DNA of 64,000 nt from Polyangiaceae bacterium (lineage in GTDB: Bacteria > Myxococcota_A > Polyangia > Polyangiales > Polyangiaceae). Position numbers and translations under genes: made by a program. The notes under the pieces were generated by a model. The model was not told the DNA's origin. It made no database searches and saw only the letters and a list, made by a program, of their open reading frames with translations. Below are positions 6,769 to 57,799 of this stretch, piece after piece. Numbering within the stretch: the first letter of the stretch is position 1; each line of letters opens with the position of its first letter. The stretch is from positions 1,937 to 65,936 of the forward strand of contig WQYX01000014.1 in assembly GCA_009781005.1 (NCBI GenBank), in the 5' to 3' direction.

Positions 6769-6891
6769 GACCGCTTTCGAGTTGACGCGAGATCGAGGCG
6801 GGGCCGAGGAGCGGACCGGAACAGCCTGCTTCGGCTTTGAGGACCGCACCGCAGGCCCTAACGACGAGATCGCGTCAAATCGAAAGCGGTC
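6769..6891 (-). mobile_element. 123-bp MITE-like palindromic element, copy 1
   Basis: Ends GACCGCTTTCGAGTTGACGCGA / CGCGTCAAATCGAAAGCGGTC; near-identical to the reverse complement of the copies at 23944, 49690 and 57677. Confidence 0.9.
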
Positions 6892-6930
6892 GCATTGACG
6901 GAGCAGAGCGACTCCTTCTAGGAGGGGGGT

Positions 6931-9258
6931 GTGAATCCGGCTGTCATGCTCATCCTCCTCGTCGGTGCCTTGGCCGTCTTTTTCTGGTCTGCACTGCGCC
7001 GCTGGCAGTTGTTGCGTGTGGGCAAATTCACGAATCGATTCGATCGGATTCCGGAGCGTATCTCGGCAGTCCTCCGCTACGCGTTCGTCCAAGAAAAGAT
7101 GGCGTATTACCAACCTGCGGGCTGGGCGCACAAACTGATATTCTTTGGATTTCTCATCCTTCTTTTACGCACGCTGGTGCTCTGGGGGCGCGGCTTCGAC
7201 CCGAGCTGGAACTTGTTCGTGCTCGGACCCACGCAGCCGCTCGGCAAGGTCTACGAGTTCGCGAAAGACGTCTTCGCCATTCTCGTTCTCATCGGCACGA
7301 GCGTCTTTTTCTACTACCGCCTCATCAAACCGCAGAAGCGGATGACCCTTAGCGGCGAGGCGCTGCTCATCCTCGGCATCATCGCGAGCATGATGATCGC
7401 CGACATCGTCTACGACGGCGCGACGCTCGCTCTCGCATCGAAGCAACCAGGGAGTTGCATCGCGGGAACGCCGGCATCTTTCGGGACACAATGCAGGGCG
7501 ATCGCCAAGCTCCTCGCGCCATTCGCGGCCAGCGCGGACGGTGCGCACGCCGCGGTCGCGAGCGGTCACCCCGGCCCTTCGTGGTTCCCGTCACCGGCCG
7601 GATCGCTCATGTCGCTCCTCTTGCACAGGCTTCCGCCGGGTGCGCTCATCGGCTTCGCGCACGCAGGATTCTGGGCGCACTCAGCGCTCGTCCTCCTCTT
7701 CTTGAACATTCTTCCGTACAGCAAACACTTCCACATCATCACGGCGATACCGAACGTCTTCTTCAAAGACCTCGAGCCGCGCGGACGTCTCGAACCCATG
7801 GGCACGGCCGAGCAGCTCGTCGACAAACTCACGGCTGCATCCGAGTTGCCTGATCCGACGAAGGCGCCCGTTGGCCTCGCGAAGGTCGAACACCTCACGT
7901 GGAAAGCCATTGTCGACTTTTACACGTGCACCGAGTGCGGTCGCTGTTCGGACAATTGCCCTGCGCACAAGACCGGCAAAATCCTCTCGCCGAAGCATCT
8001 CACGCTCGCACTGCGCGATCACTTGTACGAGCACCAACCGGAGTTCGCCGCGCAGGAGATGCAGTGGGGGCCGCGCGTGGACGACGCAGCAGCCGCAGGC
8101 GCCGACGTTGCCGCCAACGTCGAGCGCGCGGCCGACGAAGCGGAAGGCGCCAGGCGCCCGCTGCAATACAACCCCGTCGATCTCGTTCCCGAGATCCTTC
8201 ACCCCGACGTGCTCTGGGGCTGCACGACGTGCCGCGCATGCGAGGAGCAGTGCCCGGTGCTCATCTCGTACGTCGACAAGATCGTCAGCATGCGCCGAAA
8301 CCTCGTGATGATCAAAAACGAGTTTCCGCACGAACTCCAGAAGCCGTTCCAAGCCATGGAGGTCAATGGCAATCCGTGGAACCTCTCGCGCATGGATCGC
8401 GCGGCGTGGTCCGACGGCCTCGATATCCCCACGTTTGCCGACAAACCGACCGCCGAGGTTCTCTACTGGGTTGGTTGCGCGGCAAGTTACGACGACCGCG
8501 CGAAGAAGATCGCGCGCGCAACCGCGCGGTTGCTCAAGCAGGCGGGCGTCGATTTCGCGATCCTCGGTCAGGAGGAATGCTGCACGGGAGATCCCGCGCG
8601 GCGCGCCGGCAACGAGATGCTCTTCGCCATGCTCGCCGAGAGCAACGCCGCCGTCCTCAACTCGTACAAGGAGAAGGGCGGAATGAAGACCGTCGTGACA
8701 GCGTGCCCGCACTGTTTCAACACTCTGAAGAACGAGTATCCGGATTTTGGTGTGAAGCTCGAGATCGTTCACCACACGGATTTCTTGATGGGCCTCATCG
8801 CGTCGCGTCGCCTCGTGCCGAAGAGGCCCGTGGAGGGGCGCATCGTCTTCCACGACAGTTGCTACCTCGGTCGGTACAACGATGTATATGAGTCGCCGCG
8901 CGAGATCCTGCGCGCGATCCCCGGCGTCGAACTCGTCGAACCGGATTACTGGACGAAGACGCGCGGCCTCTGCTGCGGCGCGGGCGGCGCACAGATGTGG
9001 ATGGAAGAGCAGAACCAAAATCGAGTGAATGTAAAGCGCACGCTTCAACTCGTTGATACAGACGCCAAGACCGTTGCGAGCGCGTGCCCGTTCTGCATGA
9101 CGATGCTCACCGACGGCCTAAAGAGTCAGAACCTCGAGGATCGCATTCAACAGATGGACGTCGCAGAGCTGCTCGACCTGAGTTGCTCCGACGACAAGCC
9201 GACCTCACCTTCGGACGAAAATCCCCCACGAGTCGCCGACGCGGTCCCGGCGGAGTGA
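6931..9258 (+). CDS. Membrane Fe-S oxidoreductase (FadF / HdrD-GlpC-like; TM domain, two 4Fe-4S clusters, CCG domains)
   Basis: CTECGRCSDNC, CTTCRACEEQC, CCTGD, CCGAGG, ACPFC motifs. Confidence 0.9.
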   Translation: MNPAVMLILLVGALAVFFWSALRRWQLLRVGKFTNRFDRIPERISAVLRYAFVQEKMAYYQPAGWAHKLIFFGFLILLLRTLVLWGRGFDPSWNLFVLGPTQPLGKVYEFAKDVFAILVLIGTSVFFYYRLIKPQKRMTLSGEALLILGIIASMMIADIVYDGATLALASKQPGSCIAGTPASFGTQCRAIAKLLAPFAASADGAHAAVASGHPGPSWFPSPAGSLMSLLLHRLPPGALIGFAHAGFWAHSALVLLFLNILPYSKHFHIITAIPNVFFKDLEPRGRLEPMGTAEQLVDKLTAASELPDPTKAPVGLAKVEHLTWKAIVDFYTCTECGRCSDNCPAHKTGKILSPKHLTLALRDHLYEHQPEFAAQEMQWGPRVDDAAAAGADVAANVERAADEAEGARRPLQYNPVDLVPEILHPDVLWGCTTCRACEEQCPVLISYVDKIVSMRRNLVMIKNEFPHELQKPFQAMEVNGNPWNLSRMDRAAWSDGLDIPTFADKPTAEVLYWVGCAASYDDRAKKIARATARLLKQAGVDFAILGQEECCTGDPARRAGNEMLFAMLAESNAAVLNSYKEKGGMKTVVTACPHCFNTLKNEYPDFGVKLEIVHHTDFLMGLIASRRLVPKRPVEGRIVFHDSCYLGRYNDVYESPREILRAIPGVELVEPDYWTKTRGLCCGAGGAQMWMEEQNQNRVNVKRTLQLVDTDAKTVASACPFCMTMLTDGLKSQNLEDRIQQMDVAELLDLSCSDDKPTSPSDENPPRVADAVPAE

Positions 9259-9274
9259 TAAGCCTTTACGCGAG

Positions 9275-9466
9275 ATGGCATGTTGTCCGATTTGCAACGC
9301 CGACGCAAAAACACGAGAGAGCAACGCGGCATTCCCATTCTGCTCGCCTCGTTGCCGGACCATCGATCTCGGCAAGTGGTTGAACGAAGATTATCGCATG
9401 CCGGTGGAAGACGATGTGGCCGGTCCGGCCAGCGCGGCACCACCCGCCAATGATGATGAATCGTGA
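9275..9466 (+). CDS. yacG: DNA gyrase inhibitor YacG
   Basis: CPIC...FPFCSPRCRTIDLGKWLNEDYRMP. Confidence 0.92.
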   Translation: MACCPICNADAKTRESNAAFPFCSPRCRTIDLGKWLNEDYRMPVEDDVAGPASAAPPANDDES

Positions 9467-9500
9467 GAAAAACGCGTTTTTTGTGAGACACTGACAAGCC

Positions 9501-10298
9501 ATGTGTCGCTCGTTCGGATTGCTTGCGCCTCTCTTTGTTTCATCGCTGCTGTTCATCTCGTCGCAGGCTCGGGCGCAAGAGATCGCGCCGCCACCACCGA
9601 TCGATCCCGGGGTTCTCGGGGCGCCTGCGGGATCGGATGCACCATCACCGGGCACCGCAGCGACCATCGCGCAACTCGACGAAGCCGAGCGACGAGACTC
9701 GGGGCGCAAGCTCGAAGTGTTTTGGATCGATGGCGAGGTGGGTGGCTCTTACGTCAACATGGCGCAGCTCTCGTCGAAATCGCTCGGCATCGAGCAGACG
9801 AAGTCGGGTGGCCCCATGTTCGGCCTTGGCGCGGGTGCGCGGCTTCTCGCCTTCATCCTTGGCGCGCGCGTTCGTTACAACGCTCTCAGCGCTTTCAACA
9901 TGTGGCAACTCAATGGCGAAATTGGTTTCAAGATCCCGTTTCGCAAATTCGATTTCGGCATCACCGCGCACGGCGGTTACTCCTTCGTGGGCCAGCTCGG
10001 TGATGCGGACTTCGCCATGTCAACCCCCACGAACACCAGCGCCATCAAAGTTCGCGGGTTCAACGCAGGCCTCAATATCGTCCTCGACTACTACATCACG
10101 TCCATGTTCTCCGTCGGCGTCGTCGGCTTCGGCGACTTCCTTTATTTGAAGCGACCGCCGCTCGACGTGCCCGCTGGTCTCACACCCGCAGAGCAAGCGG
10201 AAATCGATAACAATCCTTCGCTCTACCAAAAATCCGGTACGACCGCGGGATTGCAATTCGGCGGTGCACTCCGCCTTGGACTGCACTTCGGGATCTAA
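9501..10298 (+). CDS. Exported protein, probable outer-membrane beta-barrel
   Basis: Signal peptide, amphipathic strands, C-terminal LRLGLHFGI. Confidence 0.6.
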   Translation: MCRSFGLLAPLFVSSLLFISSQARAQEIAPPPPIDPGVLGAPAGSDAPSPGTAATIAQLDEAERRDSGRKLEVFWIDGEVGGSYVNMAQLSSKSLGIEQTKSGGPMFGLGAGARLLAFILGARVRYNALSAFNMWQLNGEIGFKIPFRKFDFGITAHGGYSFVGQLGDADFAMSTPTNTSAIKVRGFNAGLNIVLDYYITSMFSVGVVGFGDFLYLKRPPLDVPAGLTPAEQAEIDNNPSLYQKSGTTAGLQFGGALRLGLHFGI

Positions 10299-11653
10299 AA
10301 GCGGAGGCTTGGTTTGGCGCGGCCGAGCCAGTGGCCCACGCGGAAAGCCATCTCCAGTGCCTGACGATAATTGAGACGCGGATCACAGACGCTGGCGTAA
10401 TTCCTGTCGAGATCTTCCTCGGTGAGCCCGCCACCGACGCACTCGGTGACGTCTTCGCCGGTGAGCTCGAAGTGAACGCCGCCGAGGAAGCTGCCGCTGT
10501 CGTGATGAATGGCGAAGGTCTGTTCGATTTCGAAGAGGATGTCATCGAAGCTTCGCGTCTTGAGACCATTCGCCGTCGGAATCGTATTGCCGTGCATCGG
10601 GTCGCACACCCAAAGGACCTTGCGTTTGGCGCGATGGATCCGATCGACGAGCGGCGGCAACGCGCGCTGCACGTGCGCCGCACCCATGCGTGTGATGAGC
10701 ACGAGTTTGCCGGCTTCGTTGTTCGGGTTCAGAAACTCGAGCAAGTTCAATGCATCGGCCGGATCGACGTTCGATCCGATCTTCACGCCCACCACGTTCT
10801 CGATCCCGCGGAAGAATTCGACATGAGCGCCGTCCACCGCGCGGGTGCGTTCGCCAATCCACGGAAGATGCGTCGTGAGCAAGTAGTGGCCCGTGCGCCG
10901 CGGAACCGTGCGCGTCTGCGCCGACTCGTAGTGAAGGTTCAGGCCCTCGTGGCTCGTGTAGAACTCGACGCTGGTGAGCTCGTCGACCGTTGTCTCACCG
11001 AGCGCCTCCATGAAGCGCAACGCTTCGGAGAGCCTGTGCGACGTTTGCGTGTATTCCTCACGCATCTCCGGAGGCAGATCCGCGCGAGAGAGAAACGCGA
11101 GATCCCAGTATTCGGGGTGGTGCAAATCGGCGAAGCCGCCGTCTGACAGCGAGCGCACGAAGTTGAGCGTGAGCGCCGCGTGGCCGTAGGCGTCGAGCAT
11201 GGCGCGCGGATCTGCGCGGCGCGCCTCCGGGGTGAAGTCCGGCCGATTGATGAGATCGCCGAAGTAGCTTGGCAGCACGACACCATCGCGCTCCTCGGTC
11301 AGTTTGCTGCGCGGCTTTGCGTATTGCCCAGCGAGCCGGCCGACGCGCACGACAGGAATCTTTCCGGCGTGCACGAGGACGAGCGACATCTGAAGGAGGA
11401 TCTTCAGCTTGCTCGTGATGATGTCCGGCTTGCAGTCTGCGAACATCTCGGCGCAGTCACCGCCCTGAAGCAAAAAGCGCTTGCCTGCCTGGGCTTCGGC
11501 GACGAGCTTCTTGAGGCGCTCGATCTCCCACGACGTCACGAGCGGCGGAAGCTGTCGAAGTTTCGTGACAACCGCATCGGCACCCGCGGTGTCCTCATAA
11601 TGGATTTCTTGCGCAAGAGGCCGCGCTTTCCAAGAATCAACGGACCAAGTCAC
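10295..11653 (-). CDS. Class II DAHP synthase
   Basis: FLLQGGDCAE, GRLAGQYAKPRS, CDPMHGNT, GGVHFELTGEDVTECVGG, CDPRLN. Confidence 0.96.
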   Translation of the reverse strand: MTWSVDSWKARPLAQEIHYEDTAGADAVVTKLRQLPPLVTSWEIERLKKLVAEAQAGKRFLLQGGDCAEMFADCKPDIITSKLKILLQMSLVLVHAGKIPVVRVGRLAGQYAKPRSKLTEERDGVVLPSYFGDLINRPDFTPEARRADPRAMLDAYGHAALTLNFVRSLSDGGFADLHHPEYWDLAFLSRADLPPEMREEYTQTSHRLSEALRFMEALGETTVDELTSVEFYTSHEGLNLHYESAQTRTVPRRTGHYLLTTHLPWIGERTRAVDGAHVEFFRGIENVVGVKIGSNVDPADALNLLEFLNPNNEAGKLVLITRMGAAHVQRALPPLVDRIHRAKRKVLWVCDPMHGNTIPTANGLKTRSFDDILFEIEQTFAIHHDSGSFLGGVHFELTGEDVTECVGGGLTEEDLDRNYASVCDPRLNYRQALEMAFRVGHWLGRAKPSLRF

Positions 11654-11921
11654 AGTGGACGCAGACTAGCGAGACGAGCCGCGTTTGTCGTCGTTAAGTG
11701 GACCCCACCGCGCCGCTCGCTGCGCTCGCCGCGCGCGCTCCCCTTGGCCTCGTGCTCGTCAGGCGCGAAGCGCGCCTTCCTGCGCGCGGAGCAGGGGAGC
11801 CCACAACTGCAGCATCATCGCAAGGATTATACTCTCATCGAGAGGACAACATCGTCACGTGTACCCCACAAGGGAGTACACATGTCTGGGGCTGCTCGAC
11901 GGAGCCAACACCTGTGAGCCT

Positions 11922-11978
11922 TCCCCATCCGTGCCTTCATGAGGGGAAGGCAGCGAAGCGAGATGGCGCGGATGGGGG
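11922..11978. repeat. REP-like hairpin just downstream of asd
   Basis: CCTTCCCC...GGGGAAGG stem plus the CCCC(C)ATCCG arm; single copy in this window. Confidence 0.45.
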
Positions 11979-11980
11979 CC

Positions 11981-12997: not shown

Positions 12998-13095
12998 GAG
13001 GCGCTCGACTTAGCGCGCTTTCGGCCGCGTCGCGAGCCTCATGCGTGAGATGATCGCCAAGGTCGAGTCTGCGCGCATGTTACGCTCCCCGTTCG

Positions 13096-18191: not shown

Positions 18192-18542
18192 TTACTGCGC
18201 TGCGCCTTCGAGGGCGATGAGGCGCGCCTCATGGTTGTCGAGCCTGACGTTGATGCGCTTCACCTCGTCAGCAACCTCCAAGACCGCAAGCTGGGTCAAC
18301 TTCACGTCATGTGCGACGTGGTCGATCCTGGCGCTCAGTTCCTCATGAACGTGGTCGATCTTGGCGTCGAGCCTGTCCATCCGCGTCTCGAGCCTGTCCA
18401 TCCGCGTCCCGAGTTCGTGAAATTGGTCCGCGACGGTCTGACGAAAATCTTGCACCTCGGACAAGACCTGCACCATCAGCCTCTCGAGTCTTTCGGCATC
18501 CACAACGATCACGCTAGCATGAGGGGGGGCACGCCGCGGCAA
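18192..18542 (-). CDS. Small coiled-coil heptad-repeat protein
   Basis: LGTRMDRLETRMDRLDAKIDHV; start uncertain. Confidence 0.6.
   Translation of the reverse strand: MPRRAPPHASVIVVDAERLERLMVQVLSEVQDFRQTVADQFHELGTRMDRLETRMDRLDAKIDHVHEELSARIDHVAHDVKLTQLAVLEVADEVKRINVRLDNHEARLIALEGAAQ
18367..18408. repeat. 21-bp perfect tandem repeat, two copies
   Basis: TCGAGCCTGTCCATCCGCGTC x2, encoding a heptad. Confidence 0.9.
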
Positions 18543-18554
18543 ATCGAAAGCGGT
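18535..18554 (-). mobile_element. End remnant of the 123-bp element
   Basis: CGCGGCAAATCGAAAGCGGT is identical to the end of the 28523 copy; it abuts the pilQ stop codon. Confidence 0.75.
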
Positions 18555-20579
18555 TCAGCGGCCGAGGGCTTCGGCGCGGTTGACGATGCGAGGCGTGAGA
18601 AAGATGACGAGCTCGTTGCGTGTGTCGCTCGCGCGGCGGCGCTGAAAGAGCACGCCCAGGATCGGGATGTCGCCGAAGAACGGAACTTGATCGAGGTTGC
18701 GGCCGGTGTTGCGCGTGTAGATGCCGCCGATGACCGCCGTGTGTCCGTCCATCACGAGCAAGTCCGTTTCCGCTTCGCGCTTGAGGATCGTCGGATCGCC
18801 GCGCGCCGAGGTTTGGTTGAAGTCCGGTTCGTCGCGGTTGATTTTAACGTGCATCGAGACCGAGCCGTCGGCCGTGACGTGCGGGCGAACGAGGAGCTGA
18901 AGTTTCGCTTCCTGGAACGTCGTCTGAACGCCCTGCGCGGAGATCTGTGAAAACGGAATGAGCGTTCCTTGGCTGATACGCGCGTCGCGGTTGTCGAGCG
19001 TGAGGATGCGCGGGCTCGACACGATGCGGAGCAGACCGCTCGACTCGGCCGCCGAAAGACGGATGCCGATGTTGAAGTTGTTGTCGATCGAACCGAGCGA
19101 GATGCCGAGCGCGCCGCCCGCGCCCGTGCCGGTGGCCGCCGGGAGGTTGACCGCGAAGTTCGGTTGCGGGACGTTGCCTTGGAACGCGGAGAGGCCGCGT
19201 GAGTTCGTGTTCTGGTCGTAGTTGCCGCCCGCAATGCCGATTTGGGACGGGAACGCGATGCCGGTGGGATTGCCCGTGGCCTCCGAGAACGTCGCGTCAC
19301 CACCCCACTGGATGCCGATGTCGCGCAAGTAGCGGCTCGTTGCTTCGACGATACGCGCCTCCACGAGCACCTGCGGCGTCTGCGTGTCGAGCGAGCGAAC
19401 GAGCTCCTCGATGTTGTTCAAGTTGCCCGAGATGTCGCGCGCGATGAGAACATTGGTGCGTTCGTCGACCGCGATGGAACCGCGCGGCGAGAGCATGTCT
19501 TTGGCGCGCGCTTGGAGCTCGTCGGCGCGCGCATAGCTTACCGGGATGAGGCGCGTCTCGAGCGGCGTGAGCTCGTATTCTTGCTTGGCCGCAGCGAGAC
19601 GGAGCTCGCGCTCTTTCTGAAGCGCCGCAAGGGGAGCAACGCGAATCAAATTGCCCGCGCGCACCATGCCGAGACCCTTGGCTTGGAGAACGACGTCGAG
19701 TGCTTGATCCCACGGGACGTTGTTCATCTTGATCGTGACGTTGCCGGAAACGTCGTCGGCCGTGACGATGTTCACGCGTCCGACGTCCGCGAGCAGCCGC
19801 AGGATGTTGTGGATATCGGCGTCTTTGAGATCGAGGTTGATCCGGCGGCCGTTGTAACGGCCCGCCGCCTGCGCGTTCAACGTGGCCGTGAAGCCGGCGG
19901 CAACGCTCGCTCCTTGAACCTCGACGGCCATGTCGGAATTGCCGCCGTGAATCGATGTCTCCACGCGCGGGCCGTTATCTTCGAATTTCTCGCGCGCGAC
20001 CGTGACCGACTTGCGCAAGGTCTTGACCGTCGGCGCGCCCTTGGAGCCGTCCACGCGCACGTCGATGGGCTTTGCATCTTCGGCGGCGTCTTTGGGCACC
20101 GTGGCAGCGGACGACGGGGCCAACGCCTCCTTCGCGATGTCCGTCGTTTGTGCCGGCGTGAGATCGACCTTGAGCGACGAGCCTTCGGCGCGCACGCGGT
20201 AGGAAGCCTGGCGCGTGAGATTGACCGAGAGACGCGTGGTCATGCCCGCGTCCGTTCGAAACCCTTGCGTCAGAATGCCACCGACCACCCCCACGGGTGT
20301 CGTGATGGCTTCTTTCACACCGGGCGCGTCTGCATTCGAGATGTCGACGAGCAGGCGCTTGCCACCGCTGTCGACGCGGACGCTCCAGACCGGCGGCGCG
20401 GTGCCGACAATCTCGATCTCGGTTGCGCCGGATCCTTGATCCGTGGCGCGAACCTTGACGTCGCGCACGTGGTTCGACGCGTCATCCGCCGCGCTCGCCG
20501 TCGCCAAAAAAGCGATGGCTTGCGCCGCGAGCACAGGCAGCACCTTCTTGTGAATCGAGCCTCTCATCCGCCGTTGCAT
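18555..20579 (-). CDS. pilQ: Type IV pilus secretin PilQ
   Basis: AMIN-like N-terminus; GRRINLDLKDADIHNILRLLA; NVPWDQALDVVL; secretin C-domain ending VPFFGDIPILGVLF...ELVIFLTPRIV. Start uncertain (ORF track extends to 20663). Confidence 0.93.
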   Translation of the reverse strand: MQRRMRGSIHKKVLPVLAAQAIAFLATASAADDASNHVRDVKVRATDQGSGATEIEIVGTAPPVWSVRVDSGGKRLLVDISNADAPGVKEAITTPVGVVGGILTQGFRTDAGMTTRLSVNLTRQASYRVRAEGSSLKVDLTPAQTTDIAKEALAPSSAATVPKDAAEDAKPIDVRVDGSKGAPTVKTLRKSVTVAREKFEDNGPRVETSIHGGNSDMAVEVQGASVAAGFTATLNAQAAGRYNGRRINLDLKDADIHNILRLLADVGRVNIVTADDVSGNVTIKMNNVPWDQALDVVLQAKGLGMVRAGNLIRVAPLAALQKERELRLAAAKQEYELTPLETRLIPVSYARADELQARAKDMLSPRGSIAVDERTNVLIARDISGNLNNIEELVRSLDTQTPQVLVEARIVEATSRYLRDIGIQWGGDATFSEATGNPTGIAFPSQIGIAGGNYDQNTNSRGLSAFQGNVPQPNFAVNLPAATGTGAGGALGISLGSIDNNFNIGIRLSAAESSGLLRIVSSPRILTLDNRDARISQGTLIPFSQISAQGVQTTFQEAKLQLLVRPHVTADGSVSMHVKINRDEPDFNQTSARGDPTILKREAETDLLVMDGHTAVIGGIYTRNTGRNLDQVPFFGDIPILGVLFQRRRASDTRNELVIFLTPRIVNRAEALGR

Positions 20580-23151: not shown

Positions 23152-23945
23152 GAACAGCTATGAAGAGGACGGTCGCTTCTCTTGCGCTGTCTGCCGCGAC
23201 GCTTCTCGCGCCGGTTGCGCCTGCCCTCACGCCGAAGGCCGCGCCACTTGCTCCGTTGCCCATGCTCCCGAGCGTAGCCCGCGTGATCTTTTCGCTTGTC
23301 GGCGATGGGACGTCGTCCGCGAGGCAGGCCCTCGTCATCGAGGAAGTGAACTTGCCGCGTGGCGACTGGAAGGGTGAAGCGCTCGACTTCTACGTGGCCT
23401 ACGGCGCGCCAGGGGTTCCGCATGCCGTCGACGTGCGGCTCGTGCCGGTCGCGGACGGCTCGCTCGAAGCAGACGACCATGCGGCGGGGGTACCGGTGGC
23501 GATCGAGCGCGCGCCGCGACGACCTCCGAGCGCGCATCCTCTCCTCGGTCGTGACACGATGGCCGGCTTCGTCGTCCACCTCAAAAAGGAGCCCTTTGCG
23601 AAGGCGCTCGCCCAAGGCAACATGGCAACCTTGCGCATTCGCGCCGTCGTCGATCTCCGAGAGCCGCCCGCGCCGCAGCCGTACACGCTCGTCGTTCGCC
23701 TCGGAGCATCGCGCGGCAGTCCGCTCACACTCGGCCGGCTCGTCGTCGAAAACCGACCTGGGGCGGACGTCGTCGCGCGCGCGGAAGCTCGCCTTTGCGG
23801 CGCCGACGCCGATCCGCACCCGCTCGCGGTGGCGATCACGCCGAAGCCCGCAGAGGCGCTACCTCCATCCTTGGACAATGCACCGATCGCCCCCGTGCTC
23901 GCCGTGCGTCACGCCTCTGACGATCTCTGCGTGTCTCTCTGGTGA
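23148..23945 (+). CDS. Exported hypothetical protein
   Basis: ATGA overlap with the upstream stop; signal peptide; stop codon overlaps the element end. Confidence 0.65.
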   Translation: MRTAMKRTVASLALSAATLLAPVAPALTPKAAPLAPLPMLPSVARVIFSLVGDGTSSARQALVIEEVNLPRGDWKGEALDFYVAYGAPGVPHAVDVRLVPVADGSLEADDHAAGVPVAIERAPRRPPSAHPLLGRDTMAGFVVHLKKEPFAKALAQGNMATLRIRAVVDLREPPAPQPYTLVVRLGASRGSPLTLGRLVVENRPGADVVARAEARLCGADADPHPLAVAITPKPAEALPPSLDNAPIAPVLAVRHASDDLCVSLW

Positions 23946-24066
23946 CCGCTTTCGATTTGCCGCGATCTCATCGTTGGGGCCTGCGGTGCGGTCCTCAAAG
24001 CCACACAAGGCTGTTCCGGTCCGCTCCTTGGCCCCGCCTCGACCTCGCGTCAACTTGAAAGCGGTC
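23944..24066 (+). mobile_element. 123-bp MITE-like element, copy 2, between convergent genes
   Basis: GACCGCTTTCGATTTG...CAACTTGAAAGCGGTC fills the whole gap between the two stop codons. Confidence 0.92.
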
Positions 24067-25284: not shown

Positions 25285-25632
25285 TTCACAGGTGGTTTAC
25301 AAGGAATAAAACCAAGCAATATCGACAACTTACATCTGATTGAAACAATGGACATGACGACGGCAATTCGGCGGTGCTACCTCCCTCTTCTCGAGTCGCC
25401 GGGCGCTCGGCGGTGAGTGTTCAGGTAAGTGTTCAGGCGTGAATTTTGGTATTTCACCTATCTGGATTCTATTTAAAAGCCAGTCTGAAGGCCCCGTTTG
25501 AAAGAATAGGGCGGGGATGATTGTCAATAACGTCAAAGGTTTTTCTCCATAGTTTTGGAGAGACCAGGCATATCGGCGTGTGGCGAGGGGCTACGCGGCG
25601 AATTCTTCGTGGCGGGGATTTGTGTGTGTGGT

Positions 25633-25653
25633 CTTTCCACAGCCTGTGGAAAA
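25633..25653. promoter_or_regulatory. Inverted pair of DnaA boxes
   Basis: CTTTCCACA (one mismatch to TTWTNCACA) and TGTGGAAAA (perfect on the minus strand), 3 nt apart, about 45 bp upstream of dnaA. Confidence 0.7.
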
Positions 25654-25696
25654 TCTGTGTGTGTCGCTCGTCGGCATTCGCTGAAAACGGATAGAA

Positions 25697-27133
25697 ATGC
25701 AGCACGAAATGCTCTGGAACGAGGCCGTCGTCTTTACGCATGCCAAGTCACCGGCAAGCTTCGAACAGTGGTTTTCCGGCGTTCAGTTCGACGGAATCAC
25801 GGACGGCATCATCAGTCTCCGCGCGAGAGATGAGTTCGTGCGTGACTGGGTGGAACGGCACTTTCTGCCAACGCTCACCGACTACCTACGCAGTCAAACG
25901 GGCTGGAGCGTGCAAGTGGCGTGGAGCGTCGGTGGCGATCTCGAGCGTCCTGTTGCGTGCGGCATCTCTGAGCCCCCCGTGCGTCCGCGCGCTCTTGTTC
26001 CGTCGAGTGTCACGAATCGGTTGGCCGGGCGCATCTACGAGGAAAGCGCGACGAAGGCCCCAACCAGTGCTAGCGCCGGTGCGGCATCCGCGCGGCCCAA
26101 GCGGCTCGATGGGCTGAATCCGAAGTACACGTTCGCGAACTTCGTCGTGGGTCCGTCGAACCAGCTTGCTCATGCAGCAGCCATCGCGGCGGCTGGTGGC
26201 GGCGGCCCACGCTATAATCCGGTTTTCGTGTGCGGGGGCACTGGCCTCGGCAAGACGCATCTCGTGCAGGCCGTTGCCCATCGGTTTCGGTCAGAGCGAC
26301 CGAGCGCGCGCATCCTCTATGTGTCGGCCGAGCAGTTCGTCAACGAGTTCGTCCAGTCGCTGCAGGAAGGGCGAATGAGCGAGTTCCGCAATCGCTACCG
26401 CGGTCGATGCGATCTGCTCCTCGTCGACGACATCCAGTTCCTCGCCTCGAAGACGCAGACGCAAGAAGAGTTTTTTCACGCGTTCAACGTGCTTCACCAC
26501 GCCGACAAGCAGATCGTCGTCACGAGCGACAAGTATCCTCAGCAGCTCGAGCGAATGGAGGAGCGGCTCGTCTCGCGCTTCAAGTGGGGGCTCATCGCCG
26601 ACATCCAAGGCCCGGAGCTCGAGACGCGCGTGGCCATCCTCCGCAAGAAAGCCGAACTCGAACAGATCGAGCTCGAAAGCGATGTCATCCTCTTTCTCGC
26701 GCAGTCGATTCGCTCGAACGTGCGCGAGCTCGAAGGCACGCTGATCCGTCTCGCCGCGAAGTCATCGCTCCTTGGTCGATCCATCGATCTCGAGTTCGCC
26801 CGCCAGGAGCTCGCGGTCACCGTGAACCCGCGCCCGAACGAGGCAAGTGTGGACGACATTCAGCGCGTCGTCTGCCACCACTTCAAGCTCCGATCGAACG
26901 ATCTGCTTTCAAAGGACCGCCACAAGAGCGTTGCCTTCGCGCGCCACGTTGCGATGTATCTTTGCAAGCAGCGCCTCAAGTGCAGCTTTCCCGAGCTCGG
27001 TCGTGCCTTTGGCAACCGCGATCACACGACCGTGATGAGCGCCGTGCGCAAGGTCTGCAACCTCCGCACGAGCGATCCAGAAGTGCGTGCGCATCTCGAC
27101 GCCCTCGAACGGAAGCTCGGCACCACCGATTGA
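25697..27133 (+). CDS. dnaA: Chromosomal replication initiator DnaA
   Basis: LNPKYTFANFVVGPSNQLAH, GGTGLGKTHL, LLLVDDIQFL, SNVRELEG, FGNRDHTTVMSA. Confidence 0.97.
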   Translation: MQHEMLWNEAVVFTHAKSPASFEQWFSGVQFDGITDGIISLRARDEFVRDWVERHFLPTLTDYLRSQTGWSVQVAWSVGGDLERPVACGISEPPVRPRALVPSSVTNRLAGRIYEESATKAPTSASAGAASARPKRLDGLNPKYTFANFVVGPSNQLAHAAAIAAAGGGGPRYNPVFVCGGTGLGKTHLVQAVAHRFRSERPSARILYVSAEQFVNEFVQSLQEGRMSEFRNRYRGRCDLLLVDDIQFLASKTQTQEEFFHAFNVLHHADKQIVVTSDKYPQQLERMEERLVSRFKWGLIADIQGPELETRVAILRKKAELEQIELESDVILFLAQSIRSNVRELEGTLIRLAAKSSLLGRSIDLEFARQELAVTVNPRPNEASVDDIQRVVCHHFKLRSNDLLSKDRHKSVAFARHVAMYLCKQRLKCSFPELGRAFGNRDHTTVMSAVRKVCNLRTSDPEVRAHLDALERKLGTTD

Positions 27134-27189
27134 CCGCTTTCGATCCGCTCCTCGGCCCGCCTTGATCTCACGTCAACTTGAAAGCGGTC
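27132..27189 (+). mobile_element. Internally deleted (58-bp) copy of the element
   Basis: Both ends present (GACCGCTTTCGAT...CGTCAACTTGAAAGCGGTC); overlaps the dnaA TGA. Confidence 0.85.
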
Positions 27190-27272
27190 TTGGTTTAAAA
27201 CGAAGGGCCCGGCTTCGCGTGCTTGCGCATGAGCCTATTCGCATCGTGCAAGGGGCGGTACGCTAGGCAACG

Positions 27273-28523
27273 TTGCCGATGACTCGCTCAAAAAGGACAT
27301 TCGCCGTTGCGACCAACTTTGCATTCCTTCTCGTGTGCGCGTCGCCCGCGTGCGCGGTTCGCCTGACGGATAAAAATTCGCCTGCAGACAACGGCGCAGT
27401 CACCGGTGCACCGGTCGACTGCTTGCAGATTACACCGGTTGGAACCGGCGCACCCGGAACCGCTGCGGCGCTGAAGCTCGTCGGCCGCTACGACATGACC
27501 GATCCAGCAGGCGCGAAGTTCGACTGGTCCGGCAACTACATCACCGCGAGCTTCAACGGAACCGAGGTGAGCGCGGGCATCGAGGTACCAGAGGGCCAGG
27601 ACAACGACTTCGTGTTTACGGCGGTCGTCGACGATTTGCCGCCCATCAACTTCAGGGTCACGCCGCAACAGAAGTCGTACCTGATTGCCTCTGGTCTGCC
27701 TGCCGGCGATCACGAAGTCGTCGTCATGCGCAACAGCGAGGCGCTCAACGGCACGACGATCTACACGGGCTTCAATTTCGGAGCAGACGGCGTGCCCCTG
27801 CCCCCTACGGAGCGTCCACGACGTATCGAGTTCATTGGCGACGCCATTACGTGCGGCTATGGAATTTTGGGAACCAACGCGAGCTGCCCGGACGACATCG
27901 AGATCCGCGCAGCAACGGAAAACATCTACCTTGCTTACGGCTCGCAGACGGCGCGAACCCTCTCAGCGGACGTCGTTACAACGTGCTTCTCAGGAAAGGG
28001 CGTCGTCTTCAACTACCAAGAAAAACCGAATGATCTCGACGCAACGACGACGATCCCTCAGTACTACGAGCGGACGATCGCCACGCAGGCCGACCCGCCG
28101 TGGAGCTTCGCGGAACCGGAGCCCGATGTCGTCGTGATCAGCGCCGGAACGAGCGACTTCATGCGCGACGTAAACATGGACGGGATTGCGGATGGCATCG
28201 ATCTCGATGCGTTCCACGACGGCTACCTCGCCTTCGTGAAGTCCGTGCGTTCCCGCCGGCCGAACGCGCACATTTTCATGGCGGTCTCGCCCATGTTGAC
28301 CGACGAGTTTCCGCTCACCAATTCGCGCAGGGACATGCGCGACGTGCTCGGCCGCATCGCGAGTGAGATGGCGGATTCGGGCGACATGAAGGTTTACCGC
28401 ATCGAGTTCGTGGAGATGGGCGACCGTTACGGGTACGGGTGCGAATATTATCCGAACCTCGACGTGCATCGCATCATGGCCAACCAGCTCGTCGGCGCCA
28501 TCCGCCAGAAGACATGTTGGTAA
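27273..28523 (+). CDS. SGNH/GDSL family (CE2-like) protein with substituted catalytic residues
   Basis: FDWSGNYITASF N-domain; RIEFIGDAITCGYG; AGTSDF; YGCEYYP. Confidence 0.82.
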   Translation: MPMTRSKRTFAVATNFAFLLVCASPACAVRLTDKNSPADNGAVTGAPVDCLQITPVGTGAPGTAAALKLVGRYDMTDPAGAKFDWSGNYITASFNGTEVSAGIEVPEGQDNDFVFTAVVDDLPPINFRVTPQQKSYLIASGLPAGDHEVVVMRNSEALNGTTIYTGFNFGADGVPLPPTERPRRIEFIGDAITCGYGILGTNASCPDDIEIRAATENIYLAYGSQTARTLSADVVTTCFSGKGVVFNYQEKPNDLDATTTIPQYYERTIATQADPPWSFAEPEPDVVVISAGTSDFMRDVNMDGIADGIDLDAFHDGYLAFVKSVRSRRPNAHIFMAVSPMLTDEFPLTNSRRDMRDVLGRIASEMADSGDMKVYRIEFVEMGDRYGYGCEYYPNLDVHRIMANQLVGAIRQKTCW

Positions 28524-28645
28524 ACCGCTTTCAAGTTGACGCGAGGTCGAGGCGGGGCCGAGCAGCGGACCGGAATAGCCTTGTGTGGCTTTGAGGACCG
28601 CAGCGCAGGCCCCAACGATGAGATCGCGGCAAATCGAAAGCGGTC
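28523..28645 (-). mobile_element. 123-bp MITE-like element, copy 3
   Basis: (A)ACCGCTTTCAAGTTGACGCGA...CGCGGCAAATCGAAAGCGGTC; begins within the TAA stop. Confidence 0.92.
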
Positions 28646-28649
28646 GCGC

Positions 28650-29306: not shown

Positions 29307-29311
29307 TTTCA

Positions 29312-49080: not shown

Positions 49081-49113
49081 CCACACGGCGAATTAGATTC
49101 GTCGCTGTTCGCG

Positions 49114-50712
49114 ATGTCGAGGCTCACCGATTATCGGCGCAAGCGTCGAGCGGAGGCAACCAATGAACCGTTCGACGAGACCGAGCCGCGCTCACAGAGA
49201 GACGCGGAGGGCAAGACGCTCTCGGGCGCCTTCGTCGTTCACTTGCATCATGCAAGGAGACGCCACTACGACGTTCGATTGCAGATCGGATCCGTGCTTG
49301 CGAGCTTTGCCGTGCCGCGCGGGCCAAGTCTCGATCCGAAGAACAAGCACCTTGCGATTCACACCGAAGATCACCCGCTCGACTACCTCGAATTCGAAGG
49401 CATCATTCCCGAGCATCAGTACGGCGCAGGCCCGATGATCGCGTGGGACCGCGGGATCGTGCGCTACCTCGACGGCCCGGCGGAAGAAGGCATCGAGAAG
49501 GGAAAGCTCCATGTCGAGCTCGAAGGCATGAAGCTTCACGGGCAATGGATTTTCGTGAAGCTCGCCAAGAGCAACAAAGGCAACGAGTGGCTCTTCATCA
49601 AGAAGCAAGACGAGCACGCAAGTCATGAACGCATCCTCGTCGATGAGCTCCCACGTTCGATCTACTCAGGGCTGACCATCGACGAACTAGACCGCTTTCG
49701 ATTTGACGCGATCTCATCGTTGGGGCCTGCGCTGCGGTCCTCAAAGCCAAGAGGCTGTTCCGGTCCGCTGCTCGGCCCCGCCTCGACCTCGCGTCAACTT
49801 GAAAGCGGTCTCGAACTCGCGTCCGAACGCGCCCCATCGAGCCACCGTTCGAAAATCTTCTGGCCCGAGGAAGGCATCACGAAGAGCGATCTTTGCGACT
49901 ATTACGAAGCGATCGCGACCGCGATTCTCCCGTATCTCGAGGACCGCCCCGTCCTCCTCGTGCGCTCTCCAGACGGCATCGCGGGCAAGAGCTTCTTCCA
50001 GTGGAACGTGCCGCCTGGGATGCCCGCGTGGGTGCGCACGCTGCCGCTCGAAGACGACGAAGGCAGACCGCGGCGGGGTTTTCTCGTGAGCGACCGCGAG
50101 ACGCTCCTCTACATCGCGAATCTTGCGGCGATCGCGCTTCATATCCTCGCCTACCGCATGCCGAAGGTCGACGAGGCGAACTTTCTGACGATCGACTTCG
50201 ACGTGAAGCAATCAAACTTGCATAACGCAATCATTCTCGCAAACGCGCTGCGCGAGATCCTCGAAGCGATCGATCTGCCGGGCTTTGTGAAGACGTCGGG
50301 GCAGTCCGGCCTGCACGTGCTCGTGCCGCTCGGCAAAGGTCAGAGCTTCGACACCGCGCGTACGCTCGCTCATCTCCTCGGGTGTCTGCTCGTCGAAGAG
50401 TGGCCCGATATCGCCACCATGGAGCGACATGTAGAGAAGCGCGGCGAGCGCGTTTATATCGACACCGGGCAGACCGGGGCAAGCCGCGCGATCGTCGCAC
50501 CGTACTCCGTGCGCGCCGTTCCCGGCGCCACGATCTCGACACCCGTCGGCTGGGAGGAGCTTTCCGGGGATTTCGATCCGCGCGCCTTCACGATGAAGAC
50601 CGTTCCCGATCGCATCGCGAAGATAGGTGATCCGATGAAGGCCATGCTCGTTGCCAAGCCCGATGTTGCCGCCGCCGTCGCCGCGCTCTCGTCGCTGTGT
50701 ACGAAAGTATGA
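49114..50712 (+). CDS. ligD: LigD-type protein: 3'-phosphoesterase plus primase-polymerase domains, no ligase domain, with an in-frame element
   Basis: PE motifs HHARRRHYDVRL and HTEDHPLDY; POL motifs KIFWPEEGITKSDL, IDFD, KTSGQSGLHV, VYIDT. Confidence 0.88.
   Translation: MSRLTDYRRKRRAEATNEPFDETEPRSQRDAEGKTLSGAFVVHLHHARRRHYDVRLQIGSVLASFAVPRGPSLDPKNKHLAIHTEDHPLDYLEFEGIIPEHQYGAGPMIAWDRGIVRYLDGPAEEGIEKGKLHVELEGMKLHGQWIFVKLAKSNKGNEWLFIKKQDEHASHERILVDELPRSIYSGLTIDELDRFRFDAISSLGPALRSSKPRGCSGPLLGPASTSRQLESGLELASERAPSSHRSKIFWPEEGITKSDLCDYYEAIATAILPYLEDRPVLLVRSPDGIAGKSFFQWNVPPGMPAWVRTLPLEDDEGRPRRGFLVSDRETLLYIANLAAIALHILAYRMPKVDEANFLTIDFDVKQSNLHNAIILANALREILEAIDLPGFVKTSGQSGLHVLVPLGKGQSFDTARTLAHLLGCLLVEEWPDIATMERHVEKRGERVYIDTGQTGASRAIVAPYSVRAVPGATISTPVGWEELSGDFDPRAFTMKTVPDRIAKIGDPMKAMLVAKPDVAAAVAALSSLCTKV
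49690..49810 (+). mobile_element. 121-bp copy of the element, in frame inside ligD
   Basis: Both TIRs intact; 2-bp internal deletion relative to the other copies; ORF stays open. Confidence 0.93.
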
Positions 50713-51443: not shown

Positions 51444-51446
51444 CAG

Positions 51447-51516
51447 AGGGCGGCCACGGGGGGCCGCCCCTACGAATGCGTTGTCAACTGTAGGGGCAGG
51501 CCTCCGTGCCTGCCCT
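51447..51516. repeat. Inverted pair of 27-nt GTAG-type REP sequences
   Basis: GTAGGGGCGGCCCCCCGTGGCCGCCCT (minus, 51447-51473) and GTAGGGGCAGGCCTCCGTGCCTGCCCT (plus, 51490-51516). Confidence 0.8.
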
Positions 51517-51571
51517 GCATCGCGTGCCTTCCCAACGTAAAGGCGCGATTCATCGCACCCCCGGGGGCCCC

Positions 51572-53070: not shown

Positions 53071-53071
53071 G

Positions 53072-56194: not shown

Positions 56195-56198
56195 CGGT

Positions 56199-57662
56199 TC
56201 ACTTCGTCGTGCCGAGCAGCCGCTCGAGCATGGCGTTGACGAGCTCAGGGTTTGCGCTCCCCTTGGTCGCCTTCATGATCTGCCCAACGAAGAAGCCGAA
56301 GAGCTGCTTCTTTCCCGCCTTTAGATCCGCCGCCTGTTTCGGATGATCGGCAATGACCTTTGCGCACACCTGCTCGATGGCTTTTGGATCGATCACTTGG
56401 CTCATCCCGAGCTCGGACATCGTCGCTCTAGGATCGCCGTCGGTCCATTTGACTTTTGCGTAAAGCTCCTTGGCTTGTTTGCCGCTGATCTCTCCGCTTC
56501 GGACCAGATCGAGAATTTTCGCTAGCTGCGTAGCCGAAATGGCAAATTTTGCTTTCAATCCTTGTGTCGTGACATCTCGCAGAACTTCGCTCTGGATGAA
56601 GTTTGCGACCTTGATGGTGTCGCCGAAGAGCGTCGCGGCCTCTTCGAAGAACGCCGCGATTCGCGGGTGTTGCGTGAGTACGGAAGCTGCCTGCGCGGTC
56701 AATCCGAGCTCCTGGACGAAGCGCGCGCGCTTGTCTCGCGGCGACTCGCCAACCTCCGCGTGCACACGATCGACGAACGCATCTTCCAGGACGAGCAGCG
56801 GCAAATCGGGCTCCGGAAAATAGCGATAGTCCTGCGCCGTCTCTTTGCTGCGAAGCGAGTACGTCGTGCCGGTCTTCTCGTCCCAACCGCGCGTTTCGGC
56901 AACCACGCGACCGCCGGTTTCGAGCACGTCTTTCTGCCGCTCAATCTCGGAGGCGATCGCCTTCTCGACGAAGCGAAACGAGTTGATGTTTTTGAGCTCG
57001 ACGCGCGTGCCGAGCGTGCTGTCGCCGGCGCGCCGGATCGACACGTTGACGTCGCAGCGAAGCGATCCCTCTTCGAGATTCCCGTCGTTGATGCCGAGAA
57101 AAACGAGCTCGTCGCGCAGCGCACGAAGGTACTCGGTCGCCTCCTTTGCGCTGCGCAAATCGGGCTCGCCGACGATCTCGATGAGCGGAGTGCCCGCGCG
57201 ATTGAGATCGACGACAGAACCACCGCCGAAATCATGCAGGTTCTTGCCCGCATCCTCTTCCATGTGAATGCGCGTGAGGCGAGCGACCTTGGTGCAGGGC
57301 TCGCCGCCCTCGTGCGCGGGCGGCAGCGTGATCGTGACGGCGCCACCTTTGCAGAACGGCTCGTCGTATTGGCTTATTTGGTAGCCCTTCGGGAGATCGG
57401 GATAGAAGTAGTTTTTGCGCGCGAAGCGGCTTTTTTCCTGAACCTCACCGCCGAGAGCGAGTGCAGCCTTGACGGCCATCCGCACGGCCTCCGCGTTGAG
57501 AGTTGGCAACGCCCCCGGCAAGCCAAGACACGTGGGGCAGACGTGCGTGTTCGGCGGTGCGCCGAAGGTCACATCGCACGCGCAAAAGAGTTTGCTCCGC
57601 GTGAGAAGTTGAGCGTGAACTTCGAGACCGATAACGGCTTCCCAAGATGCGCCTTCGAGCAT
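56199..57662 (-). CDS. gatB: Asp/Glu-tRNA amidotransferase subunit B
   Basis: VIGLEVHAQL, RKNYFYPDLPKGYQISQ, RIHMEEDAGK, YRYFPEPDL. The ORF-track extension to 57731 is element sequence. Confidence 0.97.
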   Translation of the reverse strand: MLEGASWEAVIGLEVHAQLLTRSKLFCACDVTFGAPPNTHVCPTCLGLPGALPTLNAEAVRMAVKAALALGGEVQEKSRFARKNYFYPDLPKGYQISQYDEPFCKGGAVTITLPPAHEGGEPCTKVARLTRIHMEEDAGKNLHDFGGGSVVDLNRAGTPLIEIVGEPDLRSAKEATEYLRALRDELVFLGINDGNLEEGSLRCDVNVSIRRAGDSTLGTRVELKNINSFRFVEKAIASEIERQKDVLETGGRVVAETRGWDEKTGTTYSLRSKETAQDYRYFPEPDLPLLVLEDAFVDRVHAEVGESPRDKRARFVQELGLTAQAASVLTQHPRIAAFFEEAATLFGDTIKVANFIQSEVLRDVTTQGLKAKFAISATQLAKILDLVRSGEISGKQAKELYAKVKWTDGDPRATMSELGMSQVIDPKAIEQVCAKVIADHPKQAADLKAGKKQLFGFFVGQIMKATKGSANPELVNAMLERLLGTTK

Positions 57663-57676
57663 GGGCGCGCAGACTA

Positions 57677-57799
57677 GACCGCTTTCGATTTGACGTGATC
57701 TCATCGTTGGGGCCTGCGGTGCGGTCCTCAAAGCCGAACAAGGCTGTTCCGGTCCGCTCCTCGGTCCCGCCTCGACCTCACGTCAACTTGAAAGCGGTC
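57677..57799 (+). mobile_element. 123-bp MITE-like element flanked by TA on both sides
   Basis: TA-GACCGCTTTC...GAAAGCGGTC-TA (TA at 57675-76 and 57800-01). Confidence 0.93.

Follow-up and report, generated by a model that had tools for sequence, protein, structure and literature searches.

The 64,000-nt stretch of Polyangiaceae DNA analysed here (the window), which comes from a 68-kb contig of a termite-gut metagenome, carries at several places a near-identical palindromic sequence of about 123 bp, here called F1. The locus raises the question of how such a family spreads: by a transposase of the classical kind, by an enzyme that handles hairpins of single-stranded DNA, or as a structure kept mainly for the benefit of the host.

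A preliminary description had reported a dispersed, non-coding palindromic family with many copies in either orientation, and its seven loci are all recovered where it had placed them, with a chance expectation of zero. The 22-mer GACCGCTTTCGATTTGACGCGA, with 3 or fewer mismatches allowed, has 12 matches in the window against 0.00 expected (100 shuffles). Five of the loci are full copies (121-123 bp); of the other two, one is a deletion derivative of 58 bp and one a remnant of an end. Four are on the + strand (23944, 27132, 49690 and 57677) and three on the - strand (6769, 28523 and 18534), so that both orientations are represented. Five of the seven are oriented as expected if the strand changes at dnaA, a pattern that bears on the lagging-strand insertion bias of IS200/IS605 elements but falls short of significance. 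The two ends are always distinct, in all copies of both genomes in which the family was studied, L being GACCGCTTTCGATTTG and R being GACCGCTTTCAAGTTG.

The full copy at 6769..6891 (123 bp, - strand) lies in the 190-bp gap that separates two divergent genes, one of 356 aa (5685-6755, -), whose ATG at 6755 is 13 nt from the R end, the other for an Fe-S/CCG oxidoreductase (6946-9258, +). At 18534..18555 (-) there is a solo L-end remnant with 3 mismatches, the first base of which is the A of the TGA stop of the secretin gene (18555-18557); from a weak HMM match, a decayed copy may reach beyond it to 18476. The full copy at 23944..24066 (+) occupies the entire gap of two convergent genes. The stop of the first (23148-23945, +) reads T|GA, with GA the first two bases of the copy, and the stop of the second (24067-25125, -) immediately adjoins its last base. 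The 58-bp copy at 27132..27189 (+) has an internal deletion that fuses L-end positions 1-13 to ~78-123, and the dnaA stop TGA (27131-27133) is formed by a T plus the GA of this copy. The full copy at 28523..28645 (-) occupies the gap between a CE2/GDSL esterase gene, whose stop TAA (28521-28523) borrows its first base, and an AlkZ-related gene that starts at 28650, 4 nt past it; dnaA and these two genes are all on the + strand. The divergent genes gatB (start 57662, -) and divIC/ftsB (start 57884, +) are 221 bp apart, and the full copy in their gap, 57677..57799 (+), is the sole copy in the window with TA on both flanks, as had been noted before.

The remaining copy, 49690..49810 (+ strand; 121 bp, with 2 nt missing in the loop), lies inside a called 532-aa LigD gene (49114-50712) and is read in frame there as 41 aa. 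The phosphoesterase and primase-polymerase domains of LigD lie on either side of it, at a point that in homologs is taken up by a ligase domain of ~260 aa, and by this comparison the copy marks loss of the ligase domain and not a simple insertion. A 6-bp repeat, CGAACT, flanking this copy was considered as a duplication and rejected, one chance match being expected from 41 copies and 81 offset combinations.

Copies of F1 lie in short stretches of higher AT content at the borders of genes. Five genes of the window have a stop codon touching or overlapping F1, and about half of 41 copies have an ORF of 230 codons or more that ends between -11 and +14 from an F1 end. Because an end begins with GA, or with G after a flanking TA, F1 frequently provides or rebuilds the stop codon, as T|GA, as TA|G or by a TGA of its own at +15. 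The family rewrites the final codons and stops of housekeeping genes, dnaA included, and it also lies directly upstream of starts, e.g. that of gatB. On one strand a single frame is fully open, 123 nt being 41 codons.

The ends of F1 had been described as imperfect terminal inverted repeats. Their similarity is confirmed, and it extends beyond 22 bp at each end: the whole 123 bp forms one long imperfect hairpin. Folding of the RNA, which had been proposed as a check, gives a hairpin with minimum free energies of -63 to -74 kcal/mol and z-scores of -5.7 to -9.6. The arms folded alone reach z of only -0.6 to +1.3 and are not palindromes themselves. Across 36 copies, 98.3% of the cells in the 40 pairs of the stem are paired, against 31-44% in slid controls, and 7 pairs show double (compensatory) changes; 0 of 500 shuffles attain this. 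Compensatory changes could also come about without selection, via template switching in a palindrome. Mismatches and bulges of the stem are likewise conserved.

In two sequencing runs that contain the window, the summed contig depth on F1 is ~4,000-13,700, compared with ~36-41 for unique sequence. The earlier suggestion was possibly hundreds of copies per genome; by this depth, in which more than one organism may be pooled, a copy number of around a hundred or higher is plausible. The same family is abundant in a related Polyangiaceae MAG, WQZB01 (JGI Ga0123357). A scan of genome contigs with a 17-nt pattern holding 3 ambiguity codes gave mostly chance matches among those listed, with real F1 copies only in MAG WQZB01 and a solo 21-nt F1 end in a soil Polyangia MAG; among the matches listed in all scans, F1 occurs only in that first MAG and in the JGI metagenomes Ga0123357 and Ga0209628. 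The element had not been recognised as a named family, and database searches agree: Rfam 15 at gathering thresholds gives 0 matches over the whole window, Rfam at E-value thresholds gives only chance-level matches for one F1 copy (E 2.8-9.9), PLSDB has no match to F1 in near or distant mode, and IMG/VR has none. A comparable element was not found described for this uncultured Myxococcota lineage in the literature searched. As far as these searches reach, F1 is an undescribed family of a general kind already known. It is apparently lineage-specific and occurs in two related Polyangiaceae-like genomes from termite guts. Retron msDNA, CRISPR and attC sites were considered and rejected, because F1 forms no array, has neither a reverse transcriptase nor an integrase beside it and is scattered in many copies.

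That F1 has moved can be read from the relative. One orthologous region, around dnaA, is available in locus L007, which corresponds to window positions 23230-27616 with genes 71-80% identical. The sites of 23944..24066 and 27132..27189 are both without an element in L007, so that the unfilled orthologous sites sought in a relative exist; at the position of the first, L007 has a spacer of ~22 bp. Upstream of dnaA, L007 has two solo R ends that the window does not have. F1 copies from different genomes are 88.8% identical, those from the same genome 91-93%. Since the occupied sites differ, and since F1 is ~89% identical where orthologous genes are 71-80% identical, F1 moved after the lineages split. 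The boundaries and target of F1 are statistical, because the intergenic DNA of L007 is too diverged for an exact unoccupied site. Among Logan contigs of the two runs none skips exactly one F1 copy, and joined F1 flanks (virtual empty sites) have no other match in the collected DNA. Decayed, truncated and nested copies of F1 are common.

Insertion of F1 makes no target-site duplication. No direct repeat of 2-6 bp recurs consistently at any boundary offset from -4 to +4 in the 41 full copies that have flanks. The hairpin, the differing sites, the polarity of the flanks and this lack of duplication are best brought together, with moderate confidence, by reading F1 as a small, non-coding, non-autonomous mobile family that would be moved in trans as a hairpin of single-stranded DNA. 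The enzyme would be encoded elsewhere and would insert the hairpin without staggered cuts; the candidate is an HUH tyrosine transposase of RAYT or IS200/IS605 type, and a rolling-circle or IS110-type enzyme would be less likely. F1 fills gaps within and between operons and is, judged from gene layout, probably co-transcribed; as a side effect its RNA hairpin may influence mRNA stability or translation. A search for RNA sequencing runs that contain the region gave none. Consistent with the earlier statement that the window holds no cognate transposase, no transposase domain is present in the called genes of 1-15124, 15697-37133 and 39114-60712, where many genes have no Pfam hit. A tblastn search with an approximate E. 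coli RayT sequence against ~0.6 Mb found nothing at E < 1; the test is weak and the sample small.

Related hairpins occur in the same genomes. F2, a hairpin of 149 nt at 58172..58320 (+), begins at the divIC stop codon; its ends differ from those of F1, its interior (58203-58288) matches F1 profile positions 20-100, and it is high-copy in the same runs. F4, a hairpin of 49 nt, lies within F1 in two places, nested there, and as its excision gives back the exact F1 consensus, F4 insertion took place without duplication. F3 consists of REP-like doublets with GTAG heads. A tentative and rather doubtful extension is that F1, F2 and F4 together may represent an undescribed, duplication-free movement of long single hairpins, in which the site of insertion would be such that the first bases of the element rebuild the stop of the receiving gene, and the enzyme would be neither a RAYT nor a classical IS200/IS605 TnpA.

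An unlikely alternative is that F1 is mainly a host-selected structure, either an RNA hairpin, intercistronic or at the 3' end, acting in mRNA stability or processing, or a DNA cruciform bound by protein, with its spread incidental or driven by recombination. The stem preserved by compensatory changes, mismatches and bulges included, fits this, as do the greater identity of F1 than of genes across the genomes and the placement of copies at gene ends, in operons and just upstream of starts, where transcription is, from gene layout, almost certain. However, the occupied sites of the dnaA region are not common to both genomes, decayed, truncated and nested copies are frequent, and both orientations occur, neither end being favoured next to the upstream gene (roughly 13 versus 11, read by eye). 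Nor do the copies have an attached terminator-like or promoter-like consensus: a test for intrinsic terminators found no terminator-like site on any copy within 23000-29500, and the T content of right-flank positions +4 to +9 shows a mild rise (35% versus 20%).

Quite unlikely, too, is movement by another enzyme that leaves no duplication, such as an IS110/IS1111 recombinase or an IS91/ISCR-like rolling-circle enzyme, that recognises a hairpin or a specific core and sometimes takes flanking bases along. Apart from the enzyme, this does not differ from the single-stranded hairpin reading, and the absent duplication fits it. The flanks offer it some material. On the right, 30 of the 41 copies have T at +1 (p = 2e-13), 23 have A at the next position and 29 have G or A after that (a T-A-R signal); on the left, where the signal is weaker, 30 of the 41 have A or T at -1. 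One flank is the more conserved, and the right flank TAGCTT recurs in L123, L135 and L144, like co-mobilised bases. Recurring flank motifs are few, however, and no gene for such an enzyme was seen.

The preliminary description had proposed TA duplication, as made by IS630/Tc1-mariner or IS5-group elements, and the corresponding explanation, a classical MITE of a DDE transposase at TA or CTAG whose duplications have eroded while the element was conserved, now appears distinctly improbable. In its favour, the inverted-repeat ends are at least 22 bp long, the flanks have a consensus of cTA|...|TAg, and TA is enriched on both: 8 of the 41 copies have it to the left, 18 to the right and 4 on both sides (20% and 44% for left and right, against a background of 1.7%). 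But left and right TA are statistically independent (Fisher p = 0.71), no 2-6 bp duplication exists at any offset, and the copies nearest the consensus, which are the least diverged (L111, L112, L117, L145 and L104_9293), have TA on neither flank. Right-flank TA is moreover tied to one subfamily, in which 7 of 8 copies have it, as if it were carried with F1. A transposase bounded by the same terminal repeats had been suggested as a further check, and the search turned up ordinary genes instead. An insertion sequence with F1 ends was not found in the called genes of the window or in ~60 related loci (~0.55 Mb), and the genes enclosed by paired L and R ends, none of them transposase-like, include what we take, by eye, to be a Crp-type regulator, ribosomal protein S16 and a nucleotidyltransferase-like protein.

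It is hardly credible that the pattern, the short LigD gene above all, is an assembly artefact of repeat collapse, for although Logan contigs of both runs end inside every F1 copy, and a stretch between two copies might in principle be lost in metagenome assembly, F1 is present in two independent data sets (the window's contig at ENA, and the contigs of the relative at JGI and NCBI), its copies are not identical, the synteny on either side of LigD agrees with L154, and the k141_ contig name suggests, as a name only, an assembly with 141-mers, which would span F1 plus flanks. F1 does break short-read assemblies of this lineage, and annotation and MAG quality in these organisms hinge on recognising it.

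Several known systems resemble F1 in part. The ERIC/IRU elements of enterobacteria and the Correia/NEMIS elements of Neisseria are imperfect palindromes, ~100-160 bp long, of intergenic DNA that is transcribed. Their insertion duplicates TA, and IHF sites and parts of promoters are present in Correia elements. Like F1 they occur in both orientations, with internally deleted variants and RNA hairpins within mRNAs. F1 differs from ERIC and Correia elements in making no duplication, in having no sequence similarity to them and in its host, a member of the Myxococcota. Rickettsia palindromic elements (RPE) are palindromic repeats readable in frame within protein genes, and F1 is similar in its open frame, which is read through in LigD; unlike RPE, only one of the seven copies in the window is intragenic, and that one marks domain loss rather than a simple insertion. 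With MITEs of the IS630/Tc1-mariner type F1 shares terminal inverted repeats, small size, the lack of an ORF, many copies and TA-enriched ends, but the defining TA duplication is absent, there being no TA or 2-4 bp CTAG duplication per copy.

Two systems without duplication come closer. PATEs derived from IS200/IS605 are like F1 in their lack of duplication, their asymmetric ends, a conserved short sequence at one end only and their reliance on DNA secondary structure (PMC7290912, PMC3119063). The ends of IS200/IS605 carry separate small subterminal hairpins and the target is 4-5 nt, whereas F1 has no distinct subterminal hairpins at L and R; it forms one spanning hairpin, flanked by T-A-(G/A). 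REPINs are paired REPs that RAYT transposases mobilise (Bertels and Rainey 2011, PMC3116915; PMC3337134). Like F1 they are non-coding, ~100-120 bp long and present in tens to hundreds of copies (PMC3116915; PMC3337134), mostly extragenic, with a near-identical population persisting in a lineage, and the entire unit, made of inverted halves, is one long hairpin kept by compensatory change and inserted without duplication. F1 departs from REPINs in that its halves are not palindromes of their own with GTAG-like heads, the symmetric heads being replaced by a one-sided T-A-R flank, in that no RAYT was found near any copy, and in its frequent overlap with stop codons and the one copy inside an ORF. 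F1 is a well-defined, high-density set of hairpin repeats from uncultured Myxococcota, with two distinct ends, covariation and sister families, and it offers a good test case for duplication-free hairpin spread beyond the REPIN model of Pseudomonas and the enterobacteria.

Twelve matches to the terminal 22-mer of F1, the dispersed 123-bp hairpin repeat, are found in the window at up to 3 mismatches, compared with 0 in 100 dinucleotide-preserving shuffles. Paired matches delimit five full copies, at 6769-6891, 23944-24066, 28523-28645, 49690-49810 (121 bp) and 57677-57799, and further matches mark an internally deleted copy of 58 bp at 27132-27189 and a solo end at 18534-18555; the seven loci claimed in the preliminary description are thus all present. 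A profile search of the window extends the solo end weakly to 18476 and yields nothing else above noise except the interior of another hairpin repeat, F2. Throughout all copies in both genomes, that of the window's organism and that of an F1-bearing Polyangiaceae relative (MAG WQZB01), the L end reads GACCGCTTTCGATTTG and the R end, on the opposite strand, GACCGCTTTCAAGTTG. These ends, previously called imperfect TIRs, are indeed similar, but they are not mere imperfect copies of each other: L and R are constantly distinct, so the polarity of F1 is fixed. Some copies have lost 46, 58 or 90 bp from the interior, others survive as a solo L or R half, and ~170-bp forms have a 49-nt mini hairpin, F4, nested in them. 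In the two runs holding the window, contig depth is ~36-41 for unique sequence and sums to ~4,000-13,700 for F1-containing bins, equivalent to some one hundred to a few hundred copies. The suggestion of hundreds of copies per genome is thus plausible in magnitude, with the sum possibly shared by the window's organism and the relative.

The window is part of a 68,098-bp contig from an ENA termite-gut metagenome assembly, and 98% of its sampled words are present in two public termite-gut runs. Among the matches listed from public collections, F1 occurs only in the MAG 'Polyangiaceae bacterium Emb289P4bin44' (WQZB01), in the JGI metagenome Ga0123357 from which that MAG derives, and in a second metagenome, Ga0209628. 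In the MAG name, Emb289 denotes Embiratermes neotenicus, a humus-feeding termite (PMC7024585). At the syntenic LigD locus of a third relative, richer in GC, 16 kb are free of F1. Searches of Rfam, PLSDB and IMG/VR gave no match to F1, and a literature search found no account of F1-like repeats in Myxococcota. A solo, exact 21-nt R end, ACCGCTTTCAAGTTGACGCGA, lies in a soil Polyangia MAG (DATBHU010000644, L077:1300-1330) a few bases past a TAG stop codon, with the rest of F1 absent there; it may be what is left of a copy, or else a shared host motif.

The hairpin of F1 is kept. On RNA folding each full copy forms one long, end-to-end imperfect hairpin (minimum free energy -63 to -74 kcal/mol; z-scores -5.7 to -9.6), in keeping with its first description as palindromic; for one copy, DNA parameters yield -32 to -35 kcal/mol (z ~ -4.5 to -4.9), and arms folded alone are unstructured. 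In an alignment of 36 full copies, with a mean column identity of 94%, 40 base pairs are 98.3% paired, and seven of them show two-sided changes (38 cells); pair 17-108 is A-T, C-G or G-C depending on subfamily. These pairing values were attained by 0 of 500 shuffles, and pairing falls to 31-44% once the partner is shifted by 1-3 columns. Bulges and two G-T positions are likewise conserved, and the fold of one strand is better by a mean of 2.3 kcal/mol.

Other hairpin repeats share the window. F2 (58172-58320, 149 nt; ends AGAGCGTGT...ACACGCTCT; RNA minimum free energy -79.8 kcal/mol) begins at the divIC/ftsB stop codon and occupies the gap up to the next gene. Its contig depth sums to ~10,600 against ~36 for unique sequence, its interior (58203-58288) matches the F1 profile (E 8e-5), and its relatives in the other genome differ at the apex. 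F3 (51446-51520) is a REP-like doublet whose two GC-rich hairpins are inverted relative to one another and each bear a GTAG/CTAC head; the related genome has copies in 10 or more loci. Such an inverted doublet of GTAG-headed hairpins is a classic signature of RAYT-associated repeats.

The family is real and multi-copy, and the sites it occupies differ between the two genomes. A locus of the relative, L007, is orthologous to window 23230-27616, with four genes at 59-80% protein and 71-78% DNA identity, and has no counterpart of the copies at 23944 and 27132; the unfilled orthologous sites sought in relatives therefore exist. Conversely, upstream of dnaA L007 has two solo R ends that are absent from the window, and subfamily GGCGGC...GCCGCC has expanded in the relative only. 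Outside F1, the intergenic DNA of window and relative can hardly be aligned, yet identity among F1 copies is 88.8% across genomes, with 92.8% inside the window and 91.5% inside the relative, which implies copies younger than the split, tightly constrained, or both. In the same region, window 25264-25421 is unusually conserved with L007:5309-5465 (85% by megablast; 79% over 211 bp by blastn); it spans the start of an outer-membrane-protein-like gene, part inside and part upstream, and its contig depth is mildly raised (56 vs 36). Just upstream of dnaA, at ~25630-25660, a DnaA-box-like inverted pair, TTTCCACAGCCTGTGGAAAA, is conserved in the relative (L007 ~6040-6075) and is possibly a dnaA autoregulation site or part of an origin. 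In the window dnaA is not succeeded by dnaN.

F1 makes no duplication, and its flanks are polar. No consistent direct repeat of 2-6 bp is found at any boundary offset from -4 to +4 in 41 full copies with flanks. TA stands on the left in 8/41, on the right in 18/41 and on both sides in 4/41 (background 1.7%), the two sides being independent (Fisher p = 0.71). Copies closest to the consensus have TA on neither flank, and right-flank TA is linked to one subfamily (7/8 of its copies), as if it had travelled along with the element. On the right, T predominates at +1 (30/41), A at +2 (23/41) and G or A at +3 (29/41), and T is mildly enriched beyond; position -1 on the left is A or T in 30/41. The TA duplication proposed in the preliminary description, with its IS630/Tc1-mariner or IS5-group mechanism, is contradicted by these data and is ruled out as it stands. 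The flanks, with no duplication and with independent TA sides, point instead to insertion without staggered cuts. F4, CTGACGGAGCCGTGCGACGGCGTGTGCGTGTGCTATCCAGCACACGCAC, was found at six loci of related contigs (L147:2313-2361, L092:594-642, L104:11157-11205, L128:8692-8739, L068:7784-7828 and L109:142-186), some of its copies lying within F1, at two different positions, and others elsewhere. At both sites within F1, excising it in silico leaves a perfect F1 consensus, so F4 too inserts without duplication.

According to gene calls stored with the contig, copies of F1 contact stop codons. In five window genes the stop overlaps or touches an F1 end: the gene at 23148-23945 and dnaA (each with stop T/GA shared with F1, the slash marking the boundary), a CE2/GDSL esterase gene (TA/A shared), a secretin gene (TG/A shared) and the gene at 24067-25125, whose TGA lies directly outside. 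The copy at 23944 is the whole gap between two convergent genes, and that at 28523 the whole gap between two co-directional genes, the next start codon lying 4 nt further. Copies 6769 and 57677 make up most of two divergent intergenic regions and end 13-14 nt from a start codon, so that F1 must there be part of a 5' leader or itself hold the promoter. About half of the 41 copies have an ORF of 230 codons or more whose end falls between -11 and +14 relative to an F1 end, without preference for L or R, and some of these ORFs are shadow frames; often the stop in question is the TGA that F1 itself carries at positions 15-17. The copies have no associated consensus resembling a promoter or a terminator. 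At L113:5139-5290 and L129:4996-5140 a partial L end, TTCGATTTGACG, stands 7 nt beyond an F1 copy and includes a -35-like TTGACG; in both loci this arrangement precedes a tRNA gene by ~55-70 nt.

Within a called 532-aa LigD homolog (49114-50712), the copy at 49690 (121 bp) supplies 41 residues, read in the element's only fully open frame. This protein has the phosphoesterase (residues 43-149) and primase-polymerase domains (residues 256-508; ~65-70% identical to homologs). It lacks the ligase domain of ~260 aa that is present in 119/119 other best homologs (712-817 aa), and the position of that domain is exactly the position of F1, which thus marks the loss of a domain. The syntenic LigD locus of a relative is intact. 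The short protein could also reflect a collapsed assembly; against this speak the synteny and the name of the contig, from which an assembly with 141-mers is likely, whose single words would span F1.

Neither coding capacity nor a linked mobilisation gene was found for F1 in the window and related loci, in agreement with the reported lack of a cognate transposase, and F1 would for this reason move in trans. RAYT and IS200/IS605 TnpA use a known chemistry that depends on DNA secondary structure, makes no duplication and goes with a flank signal on one side only. Because it combines these three F1-like traits, the mover may likewise handle F1 as a single-strand hairpin; F3 would indicate that a REP-like kind of repeat lives in the same genomes. 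The arms of F1, however, are not REPs, its ends have no separate hairpins, and no enzyme for it was found in these loci. The overall picture of F1, including movement in trans by such a single-strand hairpin mover, is given roughly even chances. The remainder is split among four alternatives: an eroded TA-duplicating MITE, which has the TA excess on its side and the TA-less near-consensus copies against it; a structural element selected by the host, with the kept hairpin for it and the differing occupied sites against; another TSD-less recombinase, which shares the lack of duplication and likewise has no linked gene; and an assembly artefact, against which the synteny at LigD speaks.

Among known systems, F1 as moved by a single-strand hairpin mover works most like REPINs and IS200/IS605-derived palindromic elements, but it has neither the REP sub-palindromes of the former nor the subterminal hairpins of the latter. 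It looks most like ERIC and Correia elements, but makes no TA duplication. F1 thus departs from each of these in a defining feature and is filed as a new family within a known general kind, the small palindromic non-autonomous repeats.
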